From the IMG/VR virus record IMGVR_UViG_3300027826_000006: a DNA stretch of 38,364 nt. One strand, given 5' to 3'. Below the pieces are notes generated by a model. That model was not told the origin of the DNA. It saw only the letters and a program-made list of their open reading frames with translations, and ran no database searches. A program made the translations under genes and the position numbers. The DNA comes from a virus. Positions 5,568-36,712 of this stretch are shown piece by piece (within the stretch, counting starts at the first letter, position 1; every line of letters starts with the position of its first letter).

Positions 5568-6704
5568 TCAATCACAACTGCGTCGGCGACGCCTTTGTTT
5601 TCGATCTTGCGCGGCTGCAACAACTTCGCCAGCGTACTCCTGCAATTCCAGCTTGCGATGCTCATCCTGAGTCTCATTACTGAGCCAGCTTAGGGCATTC
5701 GACCAGCGCCATTTGGTTTGACCCGCAGGCAGCAGTTCAATATCAGGTGATGCGAACTTTTCCACCACATTGACGCCCTCTTCTTTGTTGAGGTTCTTCT
5801 TGACCCAGTTCTGAATGTCATGGGTGGCGATCTTTTCCTCATTCGCCGCCTTGAGCAATCCAAGAGTCTGATTCACGGCTCCCGGCCCCAGAACATTTTC
5901 GGACAAGTCTTTGATTGCCGATGCCATGGTCTGAGTATCCAACGCATAGGTGCGCTCACTCAGGCGAACATTGTCCGGCAATCTCTTGCCCAGATGCACC
6001 TGCTTGAGCACAGATTCGAGCGTCGCGAGATTTGTACACCACATCCGCTCAAGAATCAATGACAATGTGAGATAGCCATCGCCAAAGTCTGAGTCGCCCA
6101 GTTCCGCGCCAATGGCAACCAGTTCGCCGGGGAATGGCTCAAACACATACGGCAAAAAGCACCGCACTTTGATCTTGGTTTGCAGCGCGAATCCATCAAT
6201 CGGACGCGCACCGTATTGCCGGATGGCTCCCACGAATGCCTCAAGCAGTGGTCGCGAGTCCAGACGGCGGAAGTGATCGGACAAGAAACCGCGCGTCTCG
6301 CCCTTCACATTGCGCAGCAAGAAGCGGTCGCCGTTCAGGTGGCCATACAGTTCGGTCAGATTATGGGCAATCAGTTGCTTGCCCCAATCCTTGGCTTGCA
6401 GTTCAGTTAGATAGCGTCCGGGGAAATTGACCCGTTCGGCTGCCTGTCGCAGGGCATGCGGATGGATGGCCAGCGCATCCGCTTTGGTATCAGGGGTGAT
6501 GATGGCCAGACCCTTTTCGCCGCTTTCAAACCGCAGCGCTTTCCCGGCCACGATCATGTCTTGCGGCACATCGTTCTGTACCTGTTCAATGACCCGTTCC
6601 ACTCTGGGAACGGATAGGTGGAACCTCTCATCGAGTCGCCGCTGGAATTCTTTGGCGGAATCCGAGACGGCCACGTTATATTCGCGTGAATCATGGTGAA
6701 TCAT
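5568..6704 (-). CDS. hypothetical protein (378 aa), largest gene of the operon
   Basis: Long ORF, no motif recognised with confidence (a phage/ICE DUF-type protein is possible). Confidence 0.6.
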   Translation of the reverse strand: MIHHDSREYNVAVSDSAKEFQRRLDERFHLSVPRVERVIEQVQNDVPQDMIVAGKALRFESGEKGLAIITPDTKADALAIHPHALRQAAERVNFPGRYLTELQAKDWGKQLIAHNLTELYGHLNGDRFLLRNVKGETRGFLSDHFRRLDSRPLLEAFVGAIRQYGARPIDGFALQTKIKVRCFLPYVFEPFPGELVAIGAELGDSDFGDGYLTLSLILERMWCTNLATLESVLKQVHLGKRLPDNVRLSERTYALDTQTMASAIKDLSENVLGPGAVNQTLGLLKAANEEKIATHDIQNWVKKNLNKEEGVNVVEKFASPDIELLPAGQTKWRWSNALSWLSNETQDEHRKLELQEYAGEVVAAAQDRKQRRRRRSCD

Positions 6705-28039: not shown

Positions 28040-28116
28040 TCCAGTCTAGCTTAATTCGGTAGAGCATCGTCCTGTTAAGACGGGTGGTCTCGGTTCGAGT
28101 CCGAGGGCTGGAGCCA
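28040..28116 (+). tRNA. tRNA-Asn (GTT)
   Basis: Manual cloverleaf: acceptor TCCAGTC/GGCTGGA, anticodon loop CTGTTAA, T-arm CTCGG-TTCGAGT-CCGAG, CCA encoded. Confidence 0.8.
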
Positions 28117-28126
28117 ATTTTAGAGT

Positions 28127-28200
28127 GCCAGATTCGGCCAACGGTAGGCCGGTTGCCTCATGAACAACCTATTCCAGTTCGACTCTGGAATCTGGCACCA
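28127..28200 (+). tRNA. tRNA-Met (CAT), elongator-like
   Basis: Acceptor GCCAGAT/ATCTGGC, loop CTCATGA closed by a C.A mismatch (G37), T-arm TCCAG-TTCGACT-CTGGA, CCA. Confidence 0.6.
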
Positions 28201-28238
28201 AAATTCGTTATTCGCGAATAGCGAACGTGGAGCGAGCC

Positions 28239-28460
28239 ATGTATGACGAACATCCAGCAACGGACAAGGGTTGGCAGCCGCTCGATTTGGACGCGCTGAT
28301 CGAAAAGCAATTGGCTGAATTGAGTGAACAGGCGAAAGAATGGACGCAGCGAATGCGCAACCTACGAAGCGAGTTGCGCCAGATTGGGCGTTAAAAAATT
28401 TAGGTGGATCGCACTGGGCGGCGGGCGAGTCTTATAAACTTGTGATTGCCCTAGATTAGG
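28239..28460 (+). CDS. possible small coiled-coil protein between tRNAs (MYDEHPATDKGWQPLDLDALIEKQLAELSEQAKEWTQRMRNLRSEL...)
   Basis: GGAG 7 nt upstream of the ATG; by my hand translation the frame stays open to 28460 and overlaps the tRNA-like element, yet it is absent from the supplied ORF track, so it is doubtful. Confidence 0.25.
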
Positions 28461-28497
28461 GCGCACGGGATGGTTCGATTCCATCATCCACTACCAA
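28404..28497 (+). tRNA. aberrant tRNA-like element (94 nt): canonical acceptor, T-arm and CCA; candidate anticodon loop CTTATAA (TAT); 15-nt extra hairpin
   Basis: Acceptor GGTGGAT/ATCCACT-A-CCA, T-arm GATGG-TTCGATT-CCATC, stem CGAGT/ACTTG around CTTATAA, hairpin GCCCT-agatt-AGGGC; the D-arm is not canonical. Confidence 0.35.
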
Positions 28498-28498
28498 G

Positions 28499-28576
28499 TG
28501 TTGAGGGGCGGATGGGTAGCGAGCGGTTCAACGGGTAATGCCGGAACGGACGAGGCTTTGGCTGCCCCTCAACTAC
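28499..28576. repeat. 10-bp perfect inverted repeat GTTGAGGGGC ... GCCCCTCAAC enclosing 58 nt
   Basis: Direct inspection; lies between the tRNA-like element and tRNA-Val. Confidence 0.5.
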
Positions 28577-28580
28577 ATGT

Positions 28581-28657
28581 GCGCGGTTAGCTCAACCCGG
28601 TAGAGCCGTTGCCCTACAAGCAACTTGTTGGGAGTTCAAATCTCTCACCGCGCACCA
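28581..28657 (+). tRNA. tRNA-Val (TAC) with C33
   Basis: Acceptor GCGCGGT/ACCGCGC, D-stem GCTC/GAGC, anticodon stem GTTGC/GCAAC, loop CCTACAA, T-arm GGGAG-TTCAAAT-CTCTC, CCA. Confidence 0.7.
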
Positions 28658-29276
28658 ATTTCAGTAAGCCCATGTCCAATTCTTGGTGGTGATTGGGGCA
28701 TAGGCCAATTAGATTCTCCTTGGCGTTGACCACGCTCAATAGGGTGGTTTTGGGAAACGTGGATACCGCCTTGATGTGGCAGCATTCAACATACGTTGAA
28801 TATCCACAGATAGAACAAGCCGCCAACAAGCCAGCGGCAGCGGCTATTTGTTTTGCATGTTGCCTGACGCTTGTATGGTAAACATTGCGACTGCCAGACC
28901 GGAACAAGTCGTTCAAGGTTTTGTTCGGTGCATTGATTCTGTGATTCGCAAGTAAGCAGTTCTTGCAGTATTTGCGGCTGATCCTAATCGGGCCACCACA
29001 ATCTGCACATCTGCCAGTTGGCTGGAGACGAGTTCGCGGTCTCTGATTGTTGGCTGATGCAGCGCATGCCCGCGAACAGTATTTTGGATTCGCCGTTTCG
29101 TTGCTGCAATGGTGGCATCGCCTAACCACTGGCGGAAATCCAGCGCAACAACTGTTGCAGCGCACGCTTTTATGGTTTCGCCGCAAATAACGTTTGTGAT
29201 TTGCGGTTGAACGAAGGAATGGCGATTTGCAAATTGAACATTGGAGTTGAACTGTTTCAGGCATTGGGGCTATCAT
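28614..29276 (-). CDS. HNH endonuclease with N-terminal Cys-rich zinc-finger region
   Basis: CSICGYSTYVECCHIKAVS ... NLIGLCPNHHQELD HNH signature; its C-terminal 44 nt overlap the 3' end of tRNA-Val. Confidence 0.55.
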   Translation of the reverse strand: MIAPMPETVQLQCSICKSPFLRSTANHKRYLRRNHKSVRCNSCCAGFPPVVRRCHHCSNETANPKYCSRACAASANNQRPRTRLQPTGRCADCGGPIRISRKYCKNCLLANHRINAPNKTLNDLFRSGSRNVYHTSVRQHAKQIAAAAGLLAACSICGYSTYVECCHIKAVSTFPKTTLLSVVNAKENLIGLCPNHHQELDMGLLKLVRGERFELPTSCL

Positions 29277-29344
29277 ATTAGATGTGAGAGATGAAACGCC
29301 ATGCCGATTCCATCACGCGGTACCATTTTAGGAGAATGAAAATG

Positions 29345-29536
29345 ATTCAGTACGATCCGCCCAGCGGTTGGAGATACGGCTTCCCGAAAGAGTACAAGCC
29401 GCAGCCGGGAGAAACGCTTGAGCAAACGCTTCTCCGCGATGGCTATCCGCAGAAAGAAATTGATGCTGGCATGGCAAAATATTGCCGCTTCTTGGGGCCG
29501 AAAGAAGAACTGAATGCGTTGTTTTCTGGAACTTAA
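29345..29536 (+). CDS. hypothetical small protein (63 aa)
   Basis: Second ATG after AGGAGA RBS (MIQYDPPSGWRYGFPKEY...). Confidence 0.4.
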   Translation: MQYDPPSGWRYGFPKEYKPQPGETLEQTLLRDGYPQKEIDAGMAKYCRFLGPKEELNALFSGT

Positions 29537-29752
29537 ATGAAAAAGAAAAGACAGCTTCGCAATTTGGGTGTGTGCGCAAGGTGCGGCGACCCAATTATGA
29601 GTGTCCACGAAGATCGCGAGCACATTGTGGGCACCAGCGCGAAAGATGCCAGAAAGTTGTGCAGTGCGTGCATTTCGCGCTACCATGACAAAAAACTTTG
29701 CATCTGCTCACATTGCAGTGGGCAAGAAAAAGATTATGCCGGTGTCGTCTAA
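29537..29752 (+). CDS. small zinc-ribbon protein (CARCG ... CSACISRYH ... CICSHCSG)
   Basis: ATG directly after the upstream TAA; its 3' end overlaps the next tRNA by about 15 nt. Confidence 0.4.
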   Translation: MKKKRQLRNLGVCARCGDPIMSVHEDREHIVGTSAKDARKLCSACISRYHDKKLCICSHCSGQEKDYAGVV

Positions 29753-29811
29753 TGGCAAGGCCCGCGCCCGATTAGCGCGAGACGTTGGTTCGATTCCAGC
29801 CACCGGTACCA
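29738..29811 (+). tRNA. tRNA-Ile-like (GAT) with atypical loop CCGATTA (C33, U37)
   Basis: Acceptor GCCGGTG/CACCGGT, D-stem GTCT/AGGC, anticodon stem CGCGC/GCGCG, T-arm GTTGG-TTCGATT-CCAGC, CCA. Confidence 0.55.
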
Positions 29812-29899
29812 TTTTTATGATTGAAACATTCATCAGAGACGGCACAACCTACCGCATCCTGAGTGGCGAAGATGCGGAGCGTGCAATGGAACGCAATAT

Positions 29900-29976
29900 G
29901 CGCGATTGGCAGAGACGGCCTATGCACTTGACTCTTAATCAAGACGACGCTGGTTCGATTCCAGCATCGCGCACCA
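29900..29976 (+). tRNA. tRNA-Lys (CTT)
   Basis: Acceptor GCGCGAT/ATCGCGC, anticodon stem CTTGA/TCAAG, loop CTCTTAA, T-arm GCTGG-TTCGATT-CCAGC, CCA. Confidence 0.8.
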
Positions 29977-29978
29977 AT

Positions 29979-30059
29979 GGGGGTATGGCAGAGTCAGGAC
30001 TATTGCATCCGCCTTTTAAGCGGAACATAACGTAGGTTCAAATCCTACTGCCCCCACCA
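29979..30059 (+). tRNA. tRNA-Lys (TTT) with 11-nt D-loop and 7-nt variable loop
   Basis: Acceptor GGGGGTA/TGCCCCC, anticodon stem TCCGC/GCGGA, loop CTTTTAA, T-arm GTAGG-TTCAAAT-CCTAC, CCA. Confidence 0.65.
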
Positions 30060-30073
30060 AATTTGAGGAAACC

Positions 30074-30409
30074 ATGAAAAACATAAAACTGAAAATAAAG
30101 AAACAGGCTTGCGAAGTCATGCTGGTTGAGTTGACCGGCGAATACGAAGATGGCGTGAAATTCGTCCGCGAATTGAACTTCAGCGGCAATGCCACGTCAA
30201 CCGTGCTGTACGGGGCGCGATTGGTGCTGGACGCGCTTGCGGAATTGGAGGCCCGCGAATACCAAGATAAGTTTCAGGCGGCCTCTCAAGCATTCGCTAA
30301 ACTGAAGTCGCTCACTAAGGCAGTTCCGGCTGGAGAGTGGACACCGGAGTACCGGGCGCTGGCAGAGGCAATCCACAACATGGGCCGCGAAGTGTTCTAC
30401 GTGGAGTAA
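30074..30409 (+). CDS. hypothetical protein (111 aa)
   Basis: RBS TGAGGAAACC-ATG. Confidence 0.5.
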   Translation: MKNIKLKIKKQACEVMLVELTGEYEDGVKFVRELNFSGNATSTVLYGARLVLDALAELEAREYQDKFQAASQAFAKLKSLTKAVPAGEWTPEYRALAEAIHNMGREVFYVE

Positions 30410-30412
30410 GTT

Positions 30413-30919
30413 ATGAAAACACCAGCAGTCGTTTTAGTGAATCCGAAATATCCGCACAATTTCGCGGCGGCAATACGCGCGTGTTCATGCTTCGGCGTAG
30501 AAGAATTGCTCTACACCGGCGACCGCATGGACATCAGGCCCAACGAGCGCTTGCCGCGCGAGGAGCGGATGAAGGGGTACGCGGCGGTTAGCTGGCGGCG
30601 CGAAGATCGCCCACTTGGCCTCCTTGGCACACCGGTTTGCGTAGAAGTCATGGAGAACAGTGAGCCGCTGACTACATTTGAGCATCCACTTGATGCCATC
30701 TATGTTTTTGGGCCAGAGGATGGCGGGGTGCCGCAAACATTCCGGCAGCACTGTCACCGCTTCGTCCACATTCCGGCGCATCACTGCCTGAATCTGGCTG
30801 CGGCAATCAATGTGGTGCTGTCGCACCGAATGATGCAGTTGAATCCAACGCTGCCACTGAGTGAAGTTCTTCACGAAACGCGCGGAGAATTAGCAGTGGC
30901 AGGGTGGGATGGCAAGTAG
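30413..30919 (+). CDS. SpoU/TrmH-family (SPOUT) RNA 2'-O-methyltransferase, TrmL-like size
   Basis: VVLVNPKYPHNFAAAIRACSCFGVEELLYTG, IYVFGPEDGGVPQ, HIPAHHCLNLAAAINVVL match the SpoU motifs. Confidence 0.6.
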   Translation: MKTPAVVLVNPKYPHNFAAAIRACSCFGVEELLYTGDRMDIRPNERLPREERMKGYAAVSWRREDRPLGLLGTPVCVEVMENSEPLTTFEHPLDAIYVFGPEDGGVPQTFRQHCHRFVHIPAHHCLNLAAAINVVLSHRMMQLNPTLPLSEVLHETRGELAVAGWDGK

Positions 30920-30993
30920 GGCCGCTTCATCCAACAGGAAAGGATCAGCACTTCTAATGCTGAAACGGCAGTTCGAGCCTGCCAGCGGCTTCC
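30919..30993 (+). tRNA. tRNA-Arg (TCT)
   Basis: Acceptor GGCCGCT/AGCGGCT, anticodon stem CAGCA/TGCTG, loop CTTCTAA, T-arm GGCAG-TTCGAGC-CTGCC, CCA. Confidence 0.7.
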
Positions 30994-31128
30994 ATTATAA
31001 TGTTCTTGGCCGGGACGGTTTCACCGGGCATCGCGTATAAAGGGAACAGGCGATGATGCTGCGACCTGCCGCTGGCGGTTGCGCTTTTCACTGCCGCCGA
31101 AAGAGCGTGGAATGTTCCCGGCCTTAAC

Positions 31129-31216
31129 GGGGGCGTGGTCTGAATTGGATTAGGCACTGCGCTACGAACGCAGATCGCGAAAGCGGATGCAGGTTCGAGT
31201 CCTGCCGCCCCTACCA
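31129..31216 (+). tRNA. tRNA-Arg (ACG) on a type-II (long variable arm) body
   Basis: Acceptor GGGGGCG/CGCCCCT, 3-bp D-stem with 12-nt D-loop, anticodon stem CTGCG/CGCAG, loop CTACGAA, 15-nt variable arm ATCGCGAAAGCGGAT, T-arm GCAGG-TTCGAGT-CCTGC, A73, CCA. Confidence 0.6.
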
Positions 31217-31222
31217 TATTTT

Positions 31223-31297
31223 GCCCGCGTAGTGTAAAGCAGAACACGGCTTCCTCCTAAGAAGCAAATCCGGGTTGAATTCCCGGCGTGGGTACCA
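31223..31297 (+). tRNA. tRNA-Arg (CCT)
   Basis: Acceptor GCCCGCG/CGTGGGT (two G.U), D-stem GTGT/ACAC, anticodon stem GCTTC/GAAGC, loop CTCCTAA, T-arm CCGGG-TTGAATT-CCCGG, CCA. Confidence 0.7.
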
Positions 31298-31299
31298 TT

Positions 31300-31375
31300 G
31301 GGCCGCTGGGGTAACGCACGAACCCGGCAGATTCCGAATCTGCAAATCCGAGTTGGATTCTCGGGCGGCCTACCA
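31300..31375 (+). tRNA. tRNA-Arg (CCG)
   Basis: Acceptor GGGCCGC/GCGGCCT, D-stem GGGT/ACCC, anticodon stem GCAGA/TCTGC, loop TTCCGAA, T-arm CCGAG-TTGGATT-CTCGG, CCA. Confidence 0.7.
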
Positions 31376-31575
31376 TTTTTCGCTTGACAAGTTTCGCCCA
31401 TTACCCCATACTCCTTACATGATTCGTTTCACCCATAGCGATTGTCCAACACCGCAGGCCGCGACCGGAACGTGGCAGGGCGAGTTTGAACGTATTGCGG
31501 GGTAAGGCGAACTTGTAGGTTCCTTGTAAGCCCCGCCTCAAAAAGCGGGGCTTAATCATTTCTGGGAGAGAGAAA

Positions 31576-31824
31576 ATGATTGATGCAAAGGTTGGGGATG
31601 TGGTTACACGCAATTTGGCTGGAGCGCTCATTGAACTAGAAGTCACCGCCGTGGATGACAAATTCATCTATTGCGGCCCGAAGGGGGTGGGCTGGAAATT
31701 TGACAAATGGACTGGCGCGGAGGTCGATGAGGAACTTGGCTGGGGGCCGCCGCCAAAAATCAGTGGCTCCTTTATCGTCCTAAACAATGCGCCGTATGGC
31801 AAAGTGATGGGCAAGATAGCTTGA
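31576..31824 (+). CDS. hypothetical small protein (82 aa)
   Basis: RBS GGGAGAGAGAAA-ATG; the stop abuts the next tRNA. Confidence 0.5.
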   Translation: MIDAKVGDVVTRNLAGALIELEVTAVDDKFIYCGPKGVGWKFDKWTGAEVDEELGWGPPPKISGSFIVLNNAPYGKVMGKIA

Positions 31825-31898
31825 GCCGGATTCGGCTAGTGGCAGGCCACGTGGTTCTCATCCACAAAACGTGGGTTCGATTCCCGCATCCGGTACCA
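31825..31898 (+). tRNA. tRNA-Glu (CTC)
   Basis: Acceptor GCCGGAT/ATCCGGT, D-stem GGCT/GGCC, loop TTCTCAT, T-arm GTGGG-TTCGATT-CCCGC, CCA. Confidence 0.6.
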
Positions 31899-31899
31899 T

Positions 31900-31979
31900 G
31901 CCGTAGAGCGCAAAGTGGTCGAGCGGCCTGTCTTTCAAGCAGGACATTCTAGCCGGTTCGAGTCCGGTCTACGGCACCA
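31900..31979 (+). tRNA. tRNA-Glu (TTC), 80 nt, A8 and 8-nt variable region
   Basis: Acceptor GCCGTAG/CTACGGC, anticodon stem CCTGT/GCAGG, loop CTTTCAA, T-arm GCCGG-TTCGAGT-CCGGT, CCA. Confidence 0.65.
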
Positions 31980-32164
31980 AATTTTATGATTACATTTTTC
32001 GGAACGCAGATTGAAGTGACAAGTGAACGGCAATGCCAGAGAAGCAGCGCCGATCATCGGGCGCTTGTGCATGAAGCACGGCTTGACAGGCAAAAGACAG
32101 GCCACAACGTGGACGAATCGTATGTGATCTGCGGGCACTGCGTCAAGGCGCTGAGTTTGAAAAT

Positions 32165-32238
32165 TTGAGTGTGGCGGGTTCGGTTAGTGGAAAGCCGCTG
32201 GCCTTTGGCACCAGCTTCGGAGGTTCGATTCCTTCACC
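32165..32238 (+). tRNA. tRNA-Gln (TTG), tentative
   Basis: Acceptor GGCGGGT/ACCCGCT, D-stem GGTT/AGCC, loop CTTTGGC with a C.A closing mismatch, T-arm GGAGG-TTCGATT-CCTTC, G73, CCA. Confidence 0.5.
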
Positions 32239-32239
32239 C

Positions 32240-32313
32240 GCTGCCATAGCGAGTTCGGTTAGTGGCAGGCCCGATGCCTCTGGAGCATCCAGCGGTGGTT
32301 CGATTCCACCACT
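32240..32313 (+). tRNA. tRNA-Gln (CTG)
   Basis: Acceptor AGCGAGT/ACTCGCT, anticodon stem GATGC/GCATC, loop CTCTGGA, T-arm GGTGG-TTCGATT-CCACC, CCA. Confidence 0.6.
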
Positions 32314-32321
32314 CGCTTCCA

Positions 32322-32398
32322 TATTTTACGGGGTGTAAGACGAAGCGGACGAGTCACCTGCCTGTCACGCAGGAGTAAGCCGGTTCAAGTCCGGTACA
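32322..32398 (+). tRNA. tRNA-Asp (GTC)
   Basis: Acceptor GGGGTGT/ACATCCC, anticodon stem CCTGC/GCAGG, loop CTGTCAC, T-arm GCCGG-TTCAAGT-CCGGT, G73, CCA. Confidence 0.7.
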
Positions 32399-32419
32399 TC
32401 CCGCCATAAGTTTGGGGCG

Positions 32420-32442
32420 ATCCACCCTAAAGGTGGGTTTTT
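32420..32442 (+). terminator. rho-independent terminator
   Basis: CCACC-ctaaa-GGTGG hairpin followed by GTTTTTCC. Confidence 0.55.
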
Positions 32443-32568
32443 CCGAGGATGAATTTCCTTGCCCAGTAATGGGCCGATATGTTCGGTTATCGCCCCTCCA
32501 CATCGGAGAACGATGAGCATCTTTGAGGATATAGACGAAATGAAATGGATTGAATGGTTCAACAAAAT

Positions 32569-32645
32569 GGGAGCGTCGGTTAATCAGCGCAAACCATCGG
32601 ACTCCAAACCCGAGACTCCCGGTTCAAATCCGGGCGCTCCCGCCA
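32569..32645 (+). tRNA. tRNA-Trp (CCA)
   Basis: Acceptor GGGAGCG/CGCTCCC, D-stem GGTT/AACC, loop CTCCAAA, T-arm CCCGG-TTCAAAT-CCGGG, G73, CCA. Confidence 0.75.
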
Positions 32646-32707
32646 TCTCTCGGGATGGCTTTTGTCCCAATTGTGGACTTTCATACCCGAACGATTTTGA
32701 CGGCAAC

Positions 32708-32884
32708 ATGGCAGTCGAATGCGACTGTGGCCATAAGTTTACTGTCGTTGGTAGATACGCCATCTCTTGTGCTGCTTGCGGTAAGGAATTGAGCAAGGAA
32801 ACCAACTCCGAGGAATGCCCGGATTCACTGTATTGGCATCGCAAGCACACCGCGATTGTGCTGAATAGGGTTTGTGTTGAGTAA
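32708..32884 (+). CDS. small zinc-ribbon protein (CDCGH ... CAACG); possible remnant of a longer ORF interrupted by tRNA-Trp
   Basis: First in-frame ATG after tRNA-Trp; an upstream in-frame CPNCG motif has no start codon. Confidence 0.3.
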   Translation: MAVECDCGHKFTVVGRYAISCAACGKELSKETNSEECPDSLYWHRKHTAIVLNRVCVE

Positions 32885-32895
32885 AGGGAAAAAGA

Positions 32896-32970
32896 GCGGG
32901 GTTGGCCGACCGGTAAGGCAGTTGGCTTCCACCCAACGATCAGCGGGTTCGATTCCCGCACCCCGCTCCA
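32896..32970 (+). tRNA. tRNA-Gly (TCC)
   Basis: Acceptor GCGGGGT/ACCCCGC, anticodon stem GTTGG/CCAAC, loop CTTCCAC, T-arm GCGGG-TTCGATT-CCCGC, CCA. Confidence 0.75.
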
Positions 32971-33097
32971 AACAACAAGATTTGTTCGGGGGCTACAAAA
33001 GCTGGAGCCTGCTTGATCTGTGGAAAGAGATGGGCGCGATTCGCCGGAGATGTTACGCGAAGCGCATGGAGTGGGAACGGAAGGGGCAATTGATTGT

Positions 33098-33172
33098 GCT
33101 GGGTTCGTCTAGCGGCAAGGATACTGCATTGCCAATGCAGTGACACCAGTTCGAGTCTGGTACCCCGCACCA
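33098..33172 (+). tRNA. tRNA-Gly (GCC)
   Basis: Acceptor GCTGGGT/ACCCCGC (3-70 mismatch), anticodon stem CTGCA/TGCAG, loop TTGCCAA, T-arm ACCAG-TTCGAGT-CTGGT, CCA. Confidence 0.65.
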
Positions 33173-33178
33173 AGTTTT

Positions 33179-33253
33179 GTGCCGTTGACCGAGTGGCTTA
33201 GGTGTATGGCTGCAACCCATACCACGGGTGTTCGATTCACCCACGGCACTCCA
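33179..33253 (+). tRNA. tRNA-Cys (GCA)
   Basis: Acceptor GTGCCGT/ACGGCAC, anticodon stem TATGG/CCATA, loop CTGCAAC, T-arm GGGTG-TTCGATT-CACCC, U73, CCA. Confidence 0.8.
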
Positions 33254-33263
33254 AATTTTTACC

Positions 33264-33644
33264 ATGGCACACTTTGACGAGCACTGTAGAGACTGCGAAC
33301 GATTACTGGGCGACCGACATGAAAAGGTCAACCGGTGGATTGATGAGTTGTTCGCGAAGCATGGCCCAGAACATCGGCGCTATCGGCATCACGGCGGTGG
33401 CGTGCGCGAGGCCCAGAAGAAGTTTGGCGGCGACGCAGCCAAGGCGGCCATCGTACATATCGTCCGCGATTGTGGGCGCGTACCGCTGGCTATGGAGTAT
33501 GACAAGCGCACGCTCTTTGAGTTCGGCGAGAATATAGTAGTCGCCCCGGAGCACTTGCGCTATGACGGGCTGGATGAAACGGCGCGGCAGAAGTTCGACA
33601 AGATTGTGAAAGCGGAGTTTGAAAGATTTGGGTTGCCAGCATAG
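33264..33644 (+). CDS. hypothetical His/Cys-rich protein (HCRDCERLLG ... HRRYRHHGGG)
   Basis: ATG at 33264 (MAHFDEH...); no clear SD; its 3' end overlaps the start of the tRNA-Thr(CGT)-like gene. Confidence 0.45.
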   Translation: MAHFDEHCRDCERLLGDRHEKVNRWIDELFAKHGPEHRRYRHHGGGVREAQKKFGGDAAKAAIVHIVRDCGRVPLAMEYDKRTLFEFGENIVVAPEHLRYDGLDETARQKFDKIVKAEFERFGLPA

Positions 33645-33709
33645 CTCATGAAGTAGAGTGCGTGATTCGTAACCACGCGAACCGGATGCGAGCGCCGGTG
33701 CTGGCTCCA
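33635..33709 (+). tRNA. tRNA-Thr (CGT)-like, degenerate T-loop
   Basis: Acceptor GCCAGCA/TGCTGGC, D-stem GCTC/GAGT, loop TTCGTAA (C.A closing mismatch), 4-bp T-stem with 9-nt loop, U73, CCA; its 3' 15 nt match tRNA-Thr(GGT) in 13 of 15 positions. Confidence 0.45.
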
Positions 33710-33783
33710 GTCAGCGTAGCTCAGTGGCAGAGCAATGGTTCGGTAAACCATCGACTCGGTTTCGATTACCGACGCTGGCTCCA
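33710..33783 (+). tRNA. tRNA-Thr (GGT) with C33
   Basis: Acceptor GTCAGCG/CGCTGGC, D-stem GCTC/GAGC, anticodon stem ATGGT/ACCAT, loop TCGGTAA, T-arm TCGGT-TTCGATT-ACCGA, CCA. Confidence 0.7.
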
Positions 33784-33788
33784 TTTTG

Positions 33789-33865
33789 GCAGGCGTGGCT
33801 CAGTCAGCGACAGCACGTGCCTTGTAAGCACGCAATCGGGAGCGCACATCTCCCCGCCTGCTCCA
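33789..33865 (+). tRNA. tRNA-Thr (TGT) with non-canonical T-loop CGCACAT
   Basis: Acceptor GCAGGCG/CGCCTGC, anticodon stem CGTGC/GCACG, loop CTTGTAA, T-stem GGGAG/CTCCC, CCA. Confidence 0.65.
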
Positions 33866-33872
33866 GTTTTAT

Positions 33873-33947
33873 GGTGTCTATCGTTCAATAGTAGGACGGC
33901 GGATTGTGGCTCCGCCAACGTCGGGGCAGAACCGACTAGACACCCCA
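33873..33947 (+). tRNA. tRNA-His (GTG) with encoded G-1 and C73; non-canonical T-loop GGCAGAA
   Basis: G-1 at 33873 pairs with C73; acceptor GTGTCTA/TAGACAC, anticodon stem GCGGA/TCCGC, loop TTGTGGC, T-stem GTCGG/CCGAC, CCA. Confidence 0.75.
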
Positions 33948-33958
33948 AAAGTTTAAGC

Positions 33959-34336
33959 ATGGGGAAACTAGCGAAGCGCGACTATAACAGGAGACGGCGG
34001 GAAAGAAACAAGGCAGTTGCCGATAAATACGCTGGAGATTGTTGCCATTTCTGTTCATATGAAGCGCGGCTAGTTGTTCATCGCAAAGACGGGATGGAAC
34101 ATAAAAAGTTCCACCTAATGAGCGAACGTGAGTTTTTGGCCGAACTAAAAAGTGGCCAATATGTGAGAGTTTGTTTCCGTTGCCACAAGGCAGTCCATTG
34201 GTGCATGACGTATTTAAGACTGAACTGGAATCAGATAACGGAAATGTGGGCCGGTAGCATAACGGGAATGCGCTCGGTTTGCACCCGAGGAGATGGGGTT
34301 CGACTCCCCCCGTGTCCACCAGATTTGGCCGTTTAA
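33959..34336 (+). CDS. HNH endonuclease (CCHFC ... HRKDG ... N ... CFRCHKAVH)
   Basis: ATG at 33959 just after tRNA-His; HNH motif; the ORF reads through the tRNA-Ala-like element to a stop at 34334-34336. Confidence 0.5.
   Translation: MGKLAKRDYNRRRRERNKAVADKYAGDCCHFCSYEARLVVHRKDGMEHKKFHLMSEREFLAELKSGQYVRVCFRCHKAVHWCMTYLRLNWNQITEMWAGSITGMRSVCTRGDGVRLPPCPPDLAV
34248..34321 (+). tRNA. tRNA-Ala (TGC)-like with imperfect acceptor stem (possible pseudo-tRNA)
   Basis: D-arm GCAT-aacggga-ATGC, anticodon stem CTCGG/CCGAG, loop TTTGCAC, T-arm TGGGG-TTCGACT-CCCCC, CCA; the acceptor GGGCCGG vs CGTGTCC pairs at only 5 of 7. Confidence 0.4.
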
Positions 34337-34403
34337 CATTGATAGTCAATGTGCTCCCCTGAAGAGGGAGAAAATCTGGCGCAATACCAGAAGCGGCCAC
34401 CAT

Positions 34404-34479
34404 CGGAGCGTAGCCTAGTGGACGAGGCACTTGTTTCGGGAACAAGTTCACAGGAGTTCGATTCTCCTCGCTCCGACCA
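34404..34479 (+). tRNA. tRNA-Pro (CGG)
   Basis: Acceptor CGGAGCG/CGCTCCG, D-stem GCCT/AGGC, anticodon stem CTTGT/ACAAG, loop TTCGGGA, T-arm AGGAG-TTCGATT-CTCCT, CCA. Confidence 0.8.
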
Positions 34480-34485
34480 CTTTTT

Positions 34486-34559
34486 CGGGATGTAGCTGGA
34501 AGGTCTAGCCCGTGCCTTGGGCGCACGTGACGGGGGTTCGATTCCCCCTATCCCGACCA
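34486..34559 (+). tRNA. tRNA-Pro (TGG)
   Basis: Acceptor CGGGATG/TATCCCG, anticodon stem CGTGC/GCACG, loop CTTGGGC, T-arm GGGGG-TTCGATT-CCCCC, CCA. Confidence 0.8.
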
Positions 34560-34575
34560 TTTATAATGCGCGAAT

Positions 34576-35083
34576 GGTTATTCGCGTAACATTAAGCCAC
34601 AGCCAACTGCATTACGCATACCAGACTGGTCTGTATCGCCACATGCGATCACTGGAGAAGGGCCACAGGCCAGACTGGCAGGACGGAACTGAGGTTTGTA
34701 ACCACATGCACGGCGCGGCCTGTGAATGCGCGTGGCATAAATGGTTAGGCATCTTTTGGCACGCTCCTGTCGATGAGTTCAAGGCGCAAGACGCAGTGGG
34801 CGGCATCCAAATTAGATCATCGCCACAAAGAAAGCCATTCTGGAAAGTAAAACCAAGCGACCCCGACGACCAAACGGCTGTCTTTTTCGCATCAGGCGAA
34901 TTGACGCACTATATCGTCGGATACATACCCATCATCGAAGCCAAACGCTTTCCCTTGGTCGATCCGGGCGGCAGAAACGTGTACTGCCATCAGGTTAAAC
35001 GCGAACAAATGTACACCGACTTCGCCAGTTTGCGCGAAACCGTACTAGCCAAGCATAAAATGATGGAATCCGTGTCCATTTAA
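34576..35083 (+). CDS. hypothetical His/Cys-containing protein (169 aa)
   Basis: First ATG after tRNA-Pro, embedded in the inverted repeat CGCGAAT-ggtt-ATTCGCG; no clear SD. Confidence 0.4.
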
Positions 35084-35113
35084 TGGTAATCTGATCCTTG
35101 GAGGGAATTACAG

Positions 35114-35494
35114 ATGAGAACATTGCTGGTGCAGGGCGAGAAGGTATTCAAAATCGAAATCCCCGACGATGCCAAAGTGACGTTCGGCCCGTGGAGTCCG
35201 CCGAATAAAAACGGGCAGTACGGCGACTACAAGGCTGTCGGCACGCTGCGCATCTATCGCGGAACCAAAGACAACATCATTGCCTGCTTTTCTGGCGTGG
35301 GCGGCTTCCGCGATATCACCATGGGCTATATGGAACAGGTTGCCAAAGAAGAAGGCGCAACCATGTGGAAAAGCGATCAGAAGGGCTATGTGCGCGAGGA
35401 GAAAGTAGCCGTGGCCAATGAGTGGGTGAATCCGCAACTCCCGGCTGCACCAGCGCCGAAGCCCAGAAAGAAGACCAAGAAAAATGGTGATTGA
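35114..35494 (+). CDS. hypothetical protein (126 aa), Lys-rich C-terminus
   Basis: RBS GGAGGGAATTACAG-ATG. Confidence 0.5.
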   Translation: MRTLLVQGEKVFKIEIPDDAKVTFGPWSPPNKNGQYGDYKAVGTLRIYRGTKDNIIACFSGVGGFRDITMGYMEQVAKEEGATMWKSDQKGYVREEKVAVANEWVNPQLPAAPAPKPRKKTKKNGD

Positions 35495-35702
35495 AATCGT
35501 TTTGCGCTCCAACGGAATGGCGAATGCCGAACCGCCGACCAAGTTCACTATCAAGAATGTGGACACGGTTGAGTTCGATGTCGATCATCCCGACGTTCTG
35601 TGTGTCCACGATATGGACGGCTGTTCCGTCGCCGACTTCCGCGATTGGGCATACTGGCGCAAGGTCGGCGAAGATCACACCGGCGAGACAGAAATCTCTT
35701 GA
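35484..35702 (+). CDS. hypothetical acidic protein (72 aa)
   Basis: ORF overlapping the upstream stop. Confidence 0.4.
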   Translation: MVIEIVLRSNGMANAEPPTKFTIKNVDTVEFDVDHPDVLCVHDMDGCSVADFRDWAYWRKVGEDHTGETEIS

Positions 35703-35728
35703 CAGAGTTTCGCGCGTAGTGCTTTAAT
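35699..35728 (+). promoter_or_regulatory. sigma70-like promoter TTGACA-N18-TTTAAT ahead of the second tRNA block
   Basis: Consensus -35; A/T-rich -10 at the right spacing. Confidence 0.4.
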
Positions 35729-35734
35729 CAGAAT

Positions 35735-35812
35735 CGCGGGGATTGAGCTACGTTGCGCTCGGTGGTCTCATAAGCCATCCCGTATTTGGTTAAACTCCAA
35801 ACTCCGCAACCA
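35735..35812 (+). tRNA. initiator-like tRNA-fMet (CAT): C1.A72 mismatch; acceptor CGCGGGG/CTCCGCA-A-CCA matches the E. coli fMet pattern
   Basis: D-stem GAGC/GCTC, anticodon stem with G.U pairs, loop CTCATAA, T-arm TTTGG-TTAAACT-CCAAA (non-canonical loop), A73, CCA. Confidence 0.55.
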
Positions 35813-35988
35813 TTTGATTTTGGGGCCAGCCCGTCGCATTAGCGTAGTGGCGAGTGGAGGCGTTTAAGGCGTTAATCGCCTCCCGGCCCCAACAGAAAAA
35901 ATCCAATGACTATCCTACGATCATTGCGACTCTCGAACATCAGTCGATCCCGACTGAGCAGTTATTTATCCCCCTGTAAAAATTTAGT

Positions 35989-36065
35989 GCGGCGCTAGGC
36001 AAACTGGAAAAGCCGGTCGATTCAAAATCCACTGTTTTGGGGTTCGACTCCCCAGCGCCGTACCA
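35989..36065 (+). tRNA. tRNA-Leu (CAA) on a type-I body (5-nt variable loop)
   Basis: Acceptor GCGGCGC/GCGCCGT, 3-bp D-stem with 11-nt D-loop, anticodon stem GTCGA/TCCAC (one mismatch), loop TTCAAAA, T-arm TGGGG-TTCGACT-CCCCA, A73, CCA. Confidence 0.55.
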
Positions 36066-36079
36066 AATGTTTGCAGGTT

Positions 36080-36156
36080 GCCAGAATGCGCGAACTGGAA
36101 TAGCGGGCCGCCTTAAGAGCGGCTGTTTGTGGGTTCGACTCCCACTTCTGGCACCA
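36080..36156 (+). tRNA. tRNA-Leu (TAA) on a type-I body (5-nt variable loop)
   Basis: Acceptor GCCAGAA/TTCTGGC, 3-bp D-stem CGC/GCG with 11-nt D-loop, anticodon stem GCCGC/GCGGC, loop CTTAAGA, T-arm GTGGG-TTCGACT-CCCAC, A73, CCA. Confidence 0.65.
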
Positions 36157-36159
36157 AAC

Positions 36160-36250
36160 GGAAGCGTAGGGAAATTGGTTAACCCAGCAGTTCGCTAAAC
36201 TGCCAAGGCCCAAAAAGGCCGTCCGCGTTCGAGTCGCGGCGCTTCCGCCA
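36160..36250 (+). tRNA. tRNA-Ser (GCT), type II, with C33
   Basis: Acceptor GGAAGCG/CGCTTCC, anticodon stem GCAGT/ACTGC, loop TCGCTAA, 19-nt variable arm, T-arm CCGCG-TTCGAGT-CGCGG, G73, CCA. Confidence 0.75.
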
Positions 36251-36251
36251 C

Positions 36252-36339
36252 GGAGAGCACGGGGATATGGACTCCCGAACCCGTTTGAAGCGGGTCGCGC
36301 CTGAAAGGGCTGGCCGTTCGAGTCGGCTGCTCTCCTCCA
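36252..36339 (+). tRNA. tRNA-Ser (TGA), type II
   Basis: Acceptor GGAGAGC/GCTCTCC, anticodon stem ACCCG/CGGGT, loop TTTGAAG, 16-nt variable arm, T-arm GGCCG-TTCGAGT-CGGCT, CCA. Confidence 0.75.
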
Positions 36340-36351
36340 GTTTGGAAGTAC

Positions 36352-36437
36352 GGTGGAATGGCTGAACGGTAAAAGCACCTGCTTGGAAAGCAGGAGTTCC
36401 CGCAAGGGGCGCGTGCGTTCGACTCGCACTTCCACCG
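36352..36437 (+). tRNA. tRNA-Ser (GGA), type II (3' tail GCCC, CCA not encoded)
   Basis: Acceptor GGTGGAA/TTCCACC, anticodon stem CCTGC/GCAGG, loop TTGGAAA, 18-nt variable arm, T-arm GTGCG-TTCGACT-CGCAC, G73. Confidence 0.7.
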
Positions 36438-36439
36438 CC

Positions 36440-36531
36440 CGAGGAAAGCGCCGATGGTCGGCAACTACGCTCGAAACGTGGGCCTACGTCGCGAATGCGG
36501 CATGACGGTTCGATTCCGTTTTCCTCGCCCA
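36440..36531 (+). tRNA. tRNA-Ser (CGA), type II
   Basis: Acceptor CGAGGAA/TTCCTCG, anticodon stem CTACG/CGTGG, loop CTCGAAA, 22-nt variable arm, T-arm GACGG-TTCGATT-CCGTT, CCA. Confidence 0.7.
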
Positions 36532-36536
36532 GTTTT

Positions 36537-36624
36537 GCACGTTTGGCAGAGCGGCAATTGCGTCTGACTGTAGATCAGATGCCCCATAGGGGCTACGAGG
36601 GTTCGAGTCCTTCAGCGTGCACCA
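36537..36624 (+). tRNA. tRNA-Tyr (GTA), type II
   Basis: Acceptor GCACGTT/AGCGTGC, anticodon stem TCTGA/TCAGA, loop CTGTAGA, 16-nt variable arm GCCCC-ata-GGGGC, T-arm GAGGG-TTCGAGT-CCTTC, A73, CCA. Confidence 0.8.
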
Positions 36625-36629
36625 GTTGT

Positions 36630-36712
36630 GCCGGTATGGTGGAATTGGCAGACACACCTGTCTTAGGAACAGGCGCTTCGGCGTGGGGGTTCAAGTCCCT
36701 CTACCGGTACCA
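36630..36712 (+). tRNA. tRNA-Leu (TAG) with 11-nt variable arm
   Basis: Acceptor GCCGGTA/TACCGGT, 3-bp D-stem with 11-nt D-loop, anticodon stem CCTGT/ACAGG, loop CTTAGGA, T-arm GGGGG-TTCAAGT-CCCTC, A73, CCA. Confidence 0.75.

Follow-up and report, generated by a model that had tools for sequence, protein, structure and literature searches.

Introduction

According to the textbook rule, long variable arms in bacteria are limited to tRNA-Leu, tRNA-Ser, tRNA-Tyr and tRNA-Sec, and both annotation pipelines and tRNA identity rules rely on that. Among the described tRNAs with which the gene reported here can be compared are the allo-tRNAs, in which acceptor and T stem form an 8/4 or 9/3 branch; their long D stem is closed by a tetraloop, the anticodon stem is lengthened, and the discriminator is G73 or U73 (Mukai et al., 2017, PMC5389517). 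They have Ser or Ala identity, and GCG, an Arg anticodon, is among their anticodons, while the paper makes no mention of an ACG species; tRNAs with a long arm and an Arg anticodon that are charged with Ser thus exist in Acidobacteria (PMC5389517). The nev-tRNAs of nematodes have a class II shape with the anticodons CCC for Gly or UAU for Ile, are derived from tRNA-Leu and are charged with Leu only (Hamashima et al., 2012, PMC3333845). Here we report a tRNA-Arg(ACG) gene with a long variable arm that is located in a tRNA array on the viral DNA of IMG/VR record IMGVR_UViG_3300027826_000006. The complete stretch analyzed, called the window in the following, is 38,364 nucleotides long, has a GC content of 53.6% and is a phage-like stretch of the 102-kb Logan contig SRR5579871_25991. 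A preliminary description had regarded the gene as an Arg(ACG) anticodon on a Leu/Ser-type tRNA body that could be charged with Leu or Ser, or alternatively as a functional but very unusual Arg tRNA. We propose that the gene probably gives rise to a functional elongator tRNA-Arg(ACG) to whose variable region a short, GNRA-capped extra arm has been added.

Like the allo-tRNAs, this gene has a long arm on an anticodon that is neither Ser nor Leu, and both come from peat and soil habitats and probably from Acidobacteria hosts. An allo-tRNA was ruled out, since the gene has a 7/5 branch, a 4-bp D stem, a 10-nt D-loop with GG, a 5-bp anticodon stem and A20. With the nev-tRNAs it has in common the class II shape combined with the anticodon of a class I amino acid. 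The nev-tRNAs are, however, eukaryotic and have a Leu body, whereas the body of the gene in the window is probably orthologous to Arg tRNAs and has kept the Arg determinants. As in horizontally mobile L-arrays and phage tRNA clusters (PMC8421152, PMC10264068, PMC11464382), the gene belongs to a large array (35 genes) with an HNH gene inside and on a phage-like contig; related arrays are found on phage contigs and on chromosomes of Acidobacteriaceae metagenome-assembled genomes (MAGs). The known nuclease-resistant phage tRNAs have changes in the anticodon loop; the window gene instead has a canonical anticodon loop and an altered variable region.

Results

Structure of the Long-Arm tRNA Gene

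ARAGORN reports the gene at 31129-31216 on the plus strand as tRNA-Arg(acg) with a length of 88 nt, consisting of 85 nt and an encoded CCA. The Rfam model RF00005 matches positions 31129-31213 (model positions 1-71) with 44.6 bits, clearly above the gathering score of 29 (E-value 4e-7 in a 9-kb search). It sets CUACGAA as the anticodon loop, and the Infernal alignment contains a 12-nt insertion in the variable region. The covariance model thus places both the anticodon loop and the extra nucleotides where the preliminary description had put them. Without any constraint, the minimum free energy (MFE) fold is a cloverleaf with an extra hairpin (−36.4 kcal/mol, z −2.3).

The acceptor stem GGGGGCG/CGCCCCU (31129-31135 with 31206-31212, plus strand, as for all parts of the gene) has seven base pairs in the MFE fold and in ARAGORN, including a G1·U72 wobble, and is separated from the D stem by U8 and G9 in the ARAGORN drawing. 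According to ARAGORN and Infernal, the D arm (31138-31155) consists of the stem GUCU/AGGC, with four base pairs including one U·G, and the 10-nt loop GAAUUGGAUU. G18 and G19 of this loop are located at 31147-31148 and are followed by A20 at 31149, which Infernal aligns to model position 20. The anticodon arm (31157-31173) has the stem CUGCG/CGCAG and the loop CUACGAA with the anticodon ACG at 31164-31166. The variable arm (31174-31188) is 15 nt long and has the sequence AUCGCGAAAGCGGAU (ATCGCGAAAGCGGAT in DNA letters). Its stem CGC/GCG (31176-31178 with 31183-31185) might be extended by a U31175·G31186 pair and is capped by a GAAA tetraloop (31179-31182). The T arm GCAGG-UUCGAGU-CCUGC (31189-31205) has a 5-bp stem in Infernal and ARAGORN. 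The gene ends with the discriminator A73 and the encoded CCA (31213-31216), as seen in the sequence and in the ARAGORN call. The 7-bp acceptor stem, the 5-bp T stem, the T loop of the type UUCRANY and the GG of the D-loop are features of a canonical tRNA.

Most structural details given in the preliminary description were confirmed, namely the perfect 5-bp anticodon stem (ARAGORN, Infernal), the 15-nt variable region with CGC-GAAA-GCG (ARAGORN, Infernal, MFE fold), the A73 discriminator (A at 31213) and the identity of the loop CTACGAA with that of E. coli tRNA-Arg(ACG), whose sequence is 100% identical in 5426 of 5426 genomes. The D arm had been described with a 3-bp stem and a 12-nt loop; this has to be corrected to 4 bp and 10 nt according to ARAGORN, Infernal and the fourth D-stem pair, which covaries among relatives (C-G in six sequences, U-A in five). 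Its variable region exceeds 10 nt and folds into a stem-loop, which gives the gene class II architecture; the 4-5-nt variable loop of class I is absent. It also does not show the class II trait of a 3-bp D stem with non-Watson-Crick nucleotides 13 and 22, since U13 and A22 are able to pair. A variable loop of 4-5 nt is typical of bacterial tRNA-Arg but is no known determinant for arginyl-tRNA synthetase (ArgRS). An intron was ruled out as explanation for the extra nucleotides, because the insertion of 10-12 nt is located in the variable region and folds as an arm. Permuted tmRNA and Y RNA were matched at chance level only.

In common with the E. coli argQ/V/Y/Z tRNA-Arg(ACG/ICG), the gene has the loop CUACGAA, the 5-bp anticodon stem, A20, C35, G36, A73, the 7/5 geometry and the 4-bp D stem. 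It differs from canonical tRNA-Arg(ACG) by the 15-nt hairpin instead of a 4-5-nt loop, by the 10-nt D-loop and by G14; in addition, the Levitt pair appears to be A15/U48, in contrast to G15/C48 in canonical tRNA-Arg. A stem of 3-4 bp with a tetraloop is also found in class II tRNA-Leu(UAG), for instance CGC-UUCG-GCG in the Leu(UAG) of the window and CCC-GAAA-GGG in that of Ralstonia phage RsoM2USA, and these tRNAs likewise have A73 and the D-loop start GAAUUGG. Unlike class II tRNA-Leu, the gene has the anticodon ACG, A20, the D-loop half GGAUUA, a Watson-Crick fourth D pair and Arg-type acceptor and T arms.

Class I tRNA-Arg(ACG) Genes Occupy the Same Position in Syntenic Arrays

Syntenic arrays were found through contigs that encode the closest homologues of the TrmL protein of the window, a TrmL-like SpoU methylase whose open reading frame (ORF) at 30413-30919 (plus strand) is located directly upstream of the Arg tRNA block. 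In contigs L015 and L022 (TrmL 82% and 70% identical to the window TrmL, respectively) the gene order Arg(tct), Arg(acg), Arg(cct), Arg(ccg) is kept. The Arg(acg) genes of L015 (78 nt) and L022 (77 nt) are ordinary class I tRNAs in the same slot of the array. The long-arm gene shares with the L015 gene the 17-nt T arm, the D-loop TTGGATTA, the anticodon loop and A73, and with the L022 gene the acceptor stem GGGGGnG/CnCCCCU including G1·U72, together with A73; the single difference between the acceptor stems of window gene and L022 gene is compensatory. The acceptor end GGGGGnG/CnCCCCU with A73 is present in only 8 of the 3094 unique tRNAs collected. Ranking by body identity after removal of arm and anticodon loop was not discriminating, with 49 matches for the L015 Arg(ACG) and 48 for Val, Tyr, Pro and Leu.

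Because the slot, the T arm and D-loop (L015) and the rare acceptor end (L022) match class I Arg(ACG) genes, the long-arm gene is probably an orthologue of a normal Arg(ACG) gene with an added arm and not a Leu or Ser gene with a mutated anticodon. The origin suggested in the preliminary description, a Leu/Ser-type body with an Arg anticodon, is thus not supported, since its parts are shared by class I Arg(ACG) genes in the same slot.

Long-Arm tRNA-Arg(ACG) Genes Form a Widespread Family

A pattern scan for CTACGAA followed by 13-27 nt and the T arm of the window gene matched 4 IMG/VR loci, 114 JGI metagenome loci and 18 GTDB genome contigs. Almost all matches are located within tRNA arrays of 10-33 genes and are reported by ARAGORN as Arg(acg) with 82-94 nt. 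The GTDB matches are mostly from Acidobacteriaceae or Terracidiphilus MAGs, with contigs of up to 1.15 Mb, and one is from a Bryobacterales MAG. This fits with the identity of about 60% between the window TrmL and Acidobacteriota proteins, and the host phylum of the phage is probably Acidobacteria. A broader scan, in which only the T-loop motif was constrained in place of the whole T arm, added 42 IMG/VR loci, whose long-arm Arg(acg) genes measure 83-96 nt and have many different acceptor, D and T arms. Altogether, 93 unique long-arm Arg(ACG) sequences were obtained, nearly all of them in arrays of uncultured phages and Acidobacteriota MAGs. The long arm in the window is therefore not a chance match, since homologous long-arm genes with compensatory changes are found in more than 100 other contigs.

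The layout closest to the window gene is found in L074, L078 and L143, which have the same 15-nt register, a similar D arm and the extra arm CCC-GCAA-GGG; identity to the L078 gene is 76%. The members of the family have the anticodon ACG, A20, the 7/5 geometry, a short hairpin of 9-21 nt that is usually GNRA-capped and a location in arrays, and the window gene fits all of these. The other Arg isoacceptors of the same arrays are mostly of normal length. In three arrays (L044, L096 and L139) a long-arm Arg(ACG) is present in addition to one of normal length, a hint that one form does not simply stand in for the other.

No match was found among the cultured phages of INPHARED with the DNA of the Arg block as query or with three other long-arm representatives. 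The window tRNA alone gave only partial matches to T arms or anticodon arms in INPHARED and no full-length relative, and a scan of IMG/VR with exact 26-mers was also without match. Literature searches for long-arm tRNA-Arg retrieved no description. Long-arm Arg(ACG) is thus a widespread class without description in the literature searched.

The Extra Arm Is Conserved as a Hairpin

The variable regions of the family (78 unique) fold to a hairpin of at least 3 bp in 94% of cases, compared with 46% of shuffled sequences, and their mean folding energy is −4.6 versus −1.0 kcal/mol for the shuffles. GNRA tetraloops dominate the loops, with GAAA in 20 and GCAA in 7 of the arms. In an alignment of 11 sequences, 96% of the cells of cloverleaf and extra stem are paired and 16 of 25 pairs have double-sided changes, values that were reached by none of 500 shuffles; all four pairs of the extra stem covary. 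The T arm is invariant in this alignment but was set by the search pattern. The hairpin design of the extra arm is thus conserved while its sequence is not, a pattern of substitution which indicates that the arm is kept by selection.

Amino Acid Identity of the Long-Arm tRNA

Work on E. coli and Thermus has identified A20, C35 and G/U36 as determinants for ArgRS, with a minor role of A/G73. The window tRNA carries A20, C35, G36 and A73. A20, which was not included in any search pattern, is present in 93 of 93 long-arm Arg(ACG) sequences and in 86 of 89 normal phage Arg(ACG) tRNAs among the matches listed. In the 3094 unique array tRNAs, an A follows the GG of the D-loop in 74-100% of the Arg isoacceptors, depending on the isoacceptor, compared with 19% for Leu, 9% for Ser and 19% for Tyr. 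The discriminator varies among the 93 long-arm relatives, with U (35) more frequent than A (28), G (18) or C (12). Leucyl-tRNA synthetase (LeuRS) needs A73; therefore, this variable discriminator does not fit with a family selected for LeuRS.

In place of the isotype models of tRNAscan-SE we used home-made isotype hidden Markov models (HMMs) with masked anticodon, which had an accuracy of 67% on held-out tRNAs. With this accuracy, 73 of 94 long-arm sequences were assigned best to Arg. The window gene scored 13.7 bits with the Leu profile, compared with a median of 32.6 for true Leu tRNAs, 44.8 for the Leu(UAG) of the window and a 90th percentile of 12.8 for non-Leu tRNAs. Its Leu and Tyr scores are in the range of non-members. 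The score of 18.6 bits with the Ser profile compares with a median of 26.6 for true Ser tRNAs and with 14.7 and 22.4 for the 90th and 99th percentile of non-Ser tRNAs, and is thus ambiguous between Ser and Arg. Substrates of seryl-tRNA synthetase (SerRS) have G73, with U73 tolerated in allo-tRNAs, and an extra arm of at least about 5 bp; the window gene instead has A73, which is a LeuRS trait, and an extra stem of 3-4 bp.

Based on these sequence features, the window tRNA is most likely arginine-accepting. The second possibility of the preliminary description, a functional but very unusual Arg tRNA, is thus favored by the orthology, by A20, by the variable discriminator and by the use of Arg codons (see below). 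Its first possibility, charging with Leu or Ser, is unlikely as the function of this tRNA in view of A20 in all 93 relatives, the variable discriminator and the CGC and CGA codons on conserved Arg columns. The resemblance of the body to tRNA-Leu is real in part: A73, A15/U48 and the D-loop start GAAUUGG agree with it, and some cross-charging may occur, whereas the acceptor stem, the T arm and A20 are Arg-type.

Codon Use of the Phage

The CGC and CGA codons of the trmL gene encode residues 22, 38, 46, 49, 139 and 157, and the corresponding columns are Arg in 117-119 of 119 homologues. Since these codons sit on conserved Arg columns, CGN means Arg in this phage. CGC is the most common Arg codon (33 per 1000, from 5715 codons), and CGU, CGC and CGA together account for about 68% of the Arg codons of the phage. 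Among the four Arg tRNAs of the array only ACG, as ICG, can read CGU and CGC. A tRNA charged with Leu or Ser would harm the phage at CGN codons, and a functional Arg tRNA would help.

The tRNA Array and Its Neighborhood

The array extends from 28040 to 36712 on the plus strand and contains 32 tRNA genes found by ARAGORN and 3 found by Rfam only, altogether 35 genes. The Arg block (30920-31375, plus strand, ARAGORN) has the order tct, long-arm acg, cct, ccg. Arg(tct) at 30920-30994, Arg(cct) at 31223-31297 and Arg(ccg) at 31300-31375 are of normal length and are all encoded on the plus strand; the long-arm gene is therefore indeed located amid three canonical Arg tRNAs, as had been stated in the preliminary description. 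Arg(tct) and the long-arm gene are separated by a 134-nt spacer (30995-31128), and the corresponding gap in L015 is 11 nt long. The spacer contains no decayed class I copy and has no match to an RNA family, and no promoter-like site was found directly upstream of the long-arm gene. A search for loci related to a small ORF at 31576-31824 found none.

The JGI label for homologues of the TrmL-like protein is tRNA(Leu) C34/U34 2′-O-methylase. The array with the trmL gene also encodes Leu(caa) and Leu(taa), and in E. coli these two tRNAs are the substrates of TrmL. An ORF for an HNH endonuclease (28614-29276, minus strand) is located inside the array and overlaps the call for a Val(tac) gene. According to one proposal, tRNA arrays are spread by homing endonucleases (PMC8421152).

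The three tRNAs found by Rfam only are located at 33635-33706, 33789-33862 and 33874-33944 on the plus strand, where ARAGORN makes no calls. Their T loops are non-canonical (GCGAGCG, GCGCACA and GCAGAAC). From the anticodon loops, the probable identities are Thr(cgu), Thr(ugu) and His(gug).

The tRNAs of Ralstonia phage RsoM2USA (MG752970.1) were inspected in the region 108127-111186 (L159), in which ARAGORN finds six tRNAs: two Tyr, three Leu and one Trp. The deposited record has only hypothetical proteins across these tRNAs, and the coding sequence RsoM2USA_171 overlaps a Leu(tag) gene.

Further Unusual tRNAs in the Array and in Related Arrays

A 94-nt tRNA at 28403-28496 (plus strand) is called Ile(tat) by ARAGORN and scores below the gathering threshold of RF00005. 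Homologues are located in L038 (482-574), L078 (1651-1745) and L143 (1534-1628). This group has a 7-bp acceptor stem, one linker nucleotide, a 4-bp D stem with a tetraloop lacking GG, a 6-bp anticodon stem with the loop CUUAUAA, a 5-bp extra arm with the loop CAGAUUA, A73 and CCA. In these features it resembles the tRNA-Sec-like allo-tRNA(UAU) of Acidobacteria (PMC5389517), but it has a 7/5 branch.

Leu(caa) at 35989-36065 and Leu(taa) at 36080-36156 (plus strand) are only 77 nt long, with a Leu-type 3-bp D stem, an 11-nt D-loop and a variable loop of just 5 nt. Short Leu tRNAs of 74-79 nt are also present in L003, L082, L095, L122 and L129. Judged by these sequences, Leu tRNAs without the extra arm and other tRNAs with it both occur in these arrays, so that arm and Leu identity are not coupled.

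Seven distinct Arg(ACG)-like genes (in L024, L038, L112, L122, L133, L135 and L142) have no D arm in the usual place. Here, the first strand of the 7-bp acceptor stem is followed by 7 nt (for example TATACCC), the CTACGAA arm, 20-21 nt with a D-loop-like AAUGGA, the T arm, the acceptor strand and CCA. ARAGORN made no calls for these seven genes. The L142 member is from the genome of an isolate, Rhizobium rosettiformans W3. These genes may encode a rearranged cloverleaf, in which the D-loop element comes after the anticodon arm.

Long-arm versions of other class I isotypes occur sporadically in the related arrays and amount to a few per cent of the genes. Further long-arm Arg tRNAs are Arg(tcg) in L023 (89 nt) and Arg(tct) in L133 (93 nt), and the gene at 1065-1152 of L143 is also among the long-arm cases. 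Long arms are likewise found on Asn in L003 (1899-1987, 89 nt), Gln(ttg) in L036 and L057 (96 nt), Glu(ttc) in L110 and L137 (94 nt), Lys(ttt) (90 nt) and Cys (86 nt) in L026 and L075, and His in L024 (86 nt). Thus, extra arms are common on Arg(ACG) in these arrays but not exclusive to it.

Several related phage contigs contain one to three tRNAs with the anticodon CUA, which ARAGORN reports as Pyl (L015, at 6456-6689; L011, L012 and L017-L020). These amber-suppressor-like tRNAs hint at recoding of stop codons in relatives of the phage. An ORF for a HisRS-like protein adjoins the array of L015.

Discussion

How the Long-Arm tRNA Might Function

We consider it fairly probable that the window gene encodes a working elongator tRNA-Arg(ACG). 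From the structure, the class I orthology, A20, the conserved arm hairpin and the Arg meaning of CGN, all of which are seen in the sequences, we infer the steps of deamination, charging and decoding. The tRNA would be transcribed within the phage array and then processed, with CCA already encoded. A34 would be deaminated to inosine by TadA of the host, which recognizes the anticodon stem-loop only; the window tRNA offers the loop CUACGAA, the same as in E. coli, on a perfect 5-bp stem. ArgRS of the host would then charge the tRNA with arginine through A20, C35 and G36, helped by A73, and the charged tRNA would read CGU, CGC and CGA. ArgRS is a class I synthetase that approaches its tRNA from the D-loop/minor-groove and anticodon side and leaves the variable face exposed. 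Since the face of the variable loop lies away from this approach, the extra arm should be tolerated by ArgRS. EF-Tu and the ribosome already accommodate class II tRNAs.

Alternative Explanations

LeuRS and SerRS ignore the anticodon. The tRNA might therefore be a missense tRNA which is loaded with Leu by LeuRS or, less likely, with Ser by SerRS, so that CGU, CGC and CGA are partly decoded as these amino acids. Several observations point in this direction and weigh against arginine. The long variable arm, the LeuRS discriminator A73, the combination A15/U48 and the D-loop start GAAUUGG recall tRNA-Leu, and the best partial match in a cultured phage is a tRNA-Leu(UAG), that of RsoM2USA (75% over 60 nt, E-value 0.06), which has the same anticodon stem and a similar CCC-GAAA-GGG arm. 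The masked HMMs place Ser marginally on top for the window gene (Ser 18.6, Arg 16.4, Pro 16.3, Leu 13.7 and Tyr 10.5 bits), an order given by models of 67% accuracy. Moreover, the geometry of the D-loop is unusual, with G at model position 14 in the Infernal alignment, and the conservation of the CTACGAA loop and the T-loop motif is no evidence, because both were fixed by the search patterns. There are also precedents, since allo-tRNAs with GCG and UAU insert Ser or Ala in E. coli (PMC5389517) and nev-tRNAs are leucylated (PMC3333845). Nevertheless, we regard misreading of CGN codons as quite unlikely. The GGAUUA half of the D-loop is Arg-type, as is A20, which is invariant in the family; the Leu and Tyr profile scores are low; the discriminator varies freely among the relatives; and the acceptor stem, the T arm and the array slot are those of class I Arg(ACG) orthologues. 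The extra stem has just 3-4 bp, while SerRS contacts several more base pairs of the extra arm. The 7/5 acceptor/T geometry and the normal D arm are unlike those of allo-tRNAs. Finally, the phage genes rely on CGC for conserved Arg residues, and mistranslation would damage the phage itself.

A refinement that does not contradict a working tRNA-Arg is that the arm blocks or misfits a tRNA-Arg-directed nuclease of the host or of a competitor, or another effector directed at tRNAs, and that translation of CGN codons continues when the tRNA-Arg of the host is depleted. The arm is kept specifically on Arg(ACG) across many unrelated arrays, in which the other Arg isoacceptors are mostly normal, both forms of Arg(ACG) occur together in three arrays, and a stable GNRA-capped hairpin is conserved in design and not in sequence, all of which speaks for such a role. 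To our knowledge, no nuclease uses the variable region of tRNA-Arg to tell its targets apart. Evasion of anticodon nucleases by phage tRNAs is known, also for colicin D, which targets tRNA-Arg (PMC10264068; see also PMC11464382, PMC11555353). The documented escape mutations are, however, in the anticodon loop, and the loop of the window tRNA is fully canonical; in addition, our analysis linked no defense or counter-defense gene to the window tRNA. The sporadic long arms on Asn, Gln, Glu, Lys, His and Cys tRNAs suggest that an arm may both arise and persist without a specific target, and neutral persistence is a candidate alternative to nuclease evasion. As a specific statement about the purpose of the arm, we consider the anti-defense role unlikely. 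The same gene might also be a tRNA-like RNA without a role in translation or a decaying copy, that is a decoy, a regulator or a pseudogene. Mukai et al. (2017, PMC5389517) concluded that many acidobacterial allo-tRNAs(UAU) may have no part in translation, L-arrays are in some cases mostly silent (PMC8421152), and the D-loop with its G at model position 14 is unusual. In the window gene, however, all stems are fully paired, the T loop, G18G19, A20, the anticodon loop and CCA are intact, all variable stems of the family show compensatory change, and it is the sole tRNA of the array able to read the commonest Arg codon of the phage. A non-translational RNA is thus very unlikely.

Implications of a Long-Arm tRNA-Arg

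With at least 93 unique forms in many environments and in Acidobacteriota arrays, the sequences suggest that long-arm Arg(ACG) is a recurrent exception to the rule on long variable arms. As a tentative proposal, to which we give a rather small chance, long-arm Arg(ACG) might be a distinct, selected class of mobile-element tRNAs. The arm could then serve as a shield or handle by which the phage or array copy resists, or is addressed apart from, host factors for the tRNA-Arg(ICG) of the host, for instance tRNA-Arg-directed nucleases; or it could confer a dual identity, Arg/Ser or Arg/Leu, that is turned against the host. Together with the arm-less Leu tRNAs and the allo-like UAU tRNA of the same array, this would mean that phage tRNA arrays systematically separate class I/II architecture from identity.

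If arginine is accepted, ArgRS, TadA, EF-Tu and the ribosome would all tolerate an extra arm on tRNA-Arg, and the tRNA would be a natural scaffold for tagging or engineering tRNA-Arg. The question would then be why mobile elements keep the arm, and evasion of tRNA-targeting defense is the evident candidate. In the case of mischarging, the tRNA would be a natural missense tRNA for CGN codons with a wide distribution. Either way, tRNA annotators will flag such genes as isotype mismatches, and their recognition as a class is warranted.

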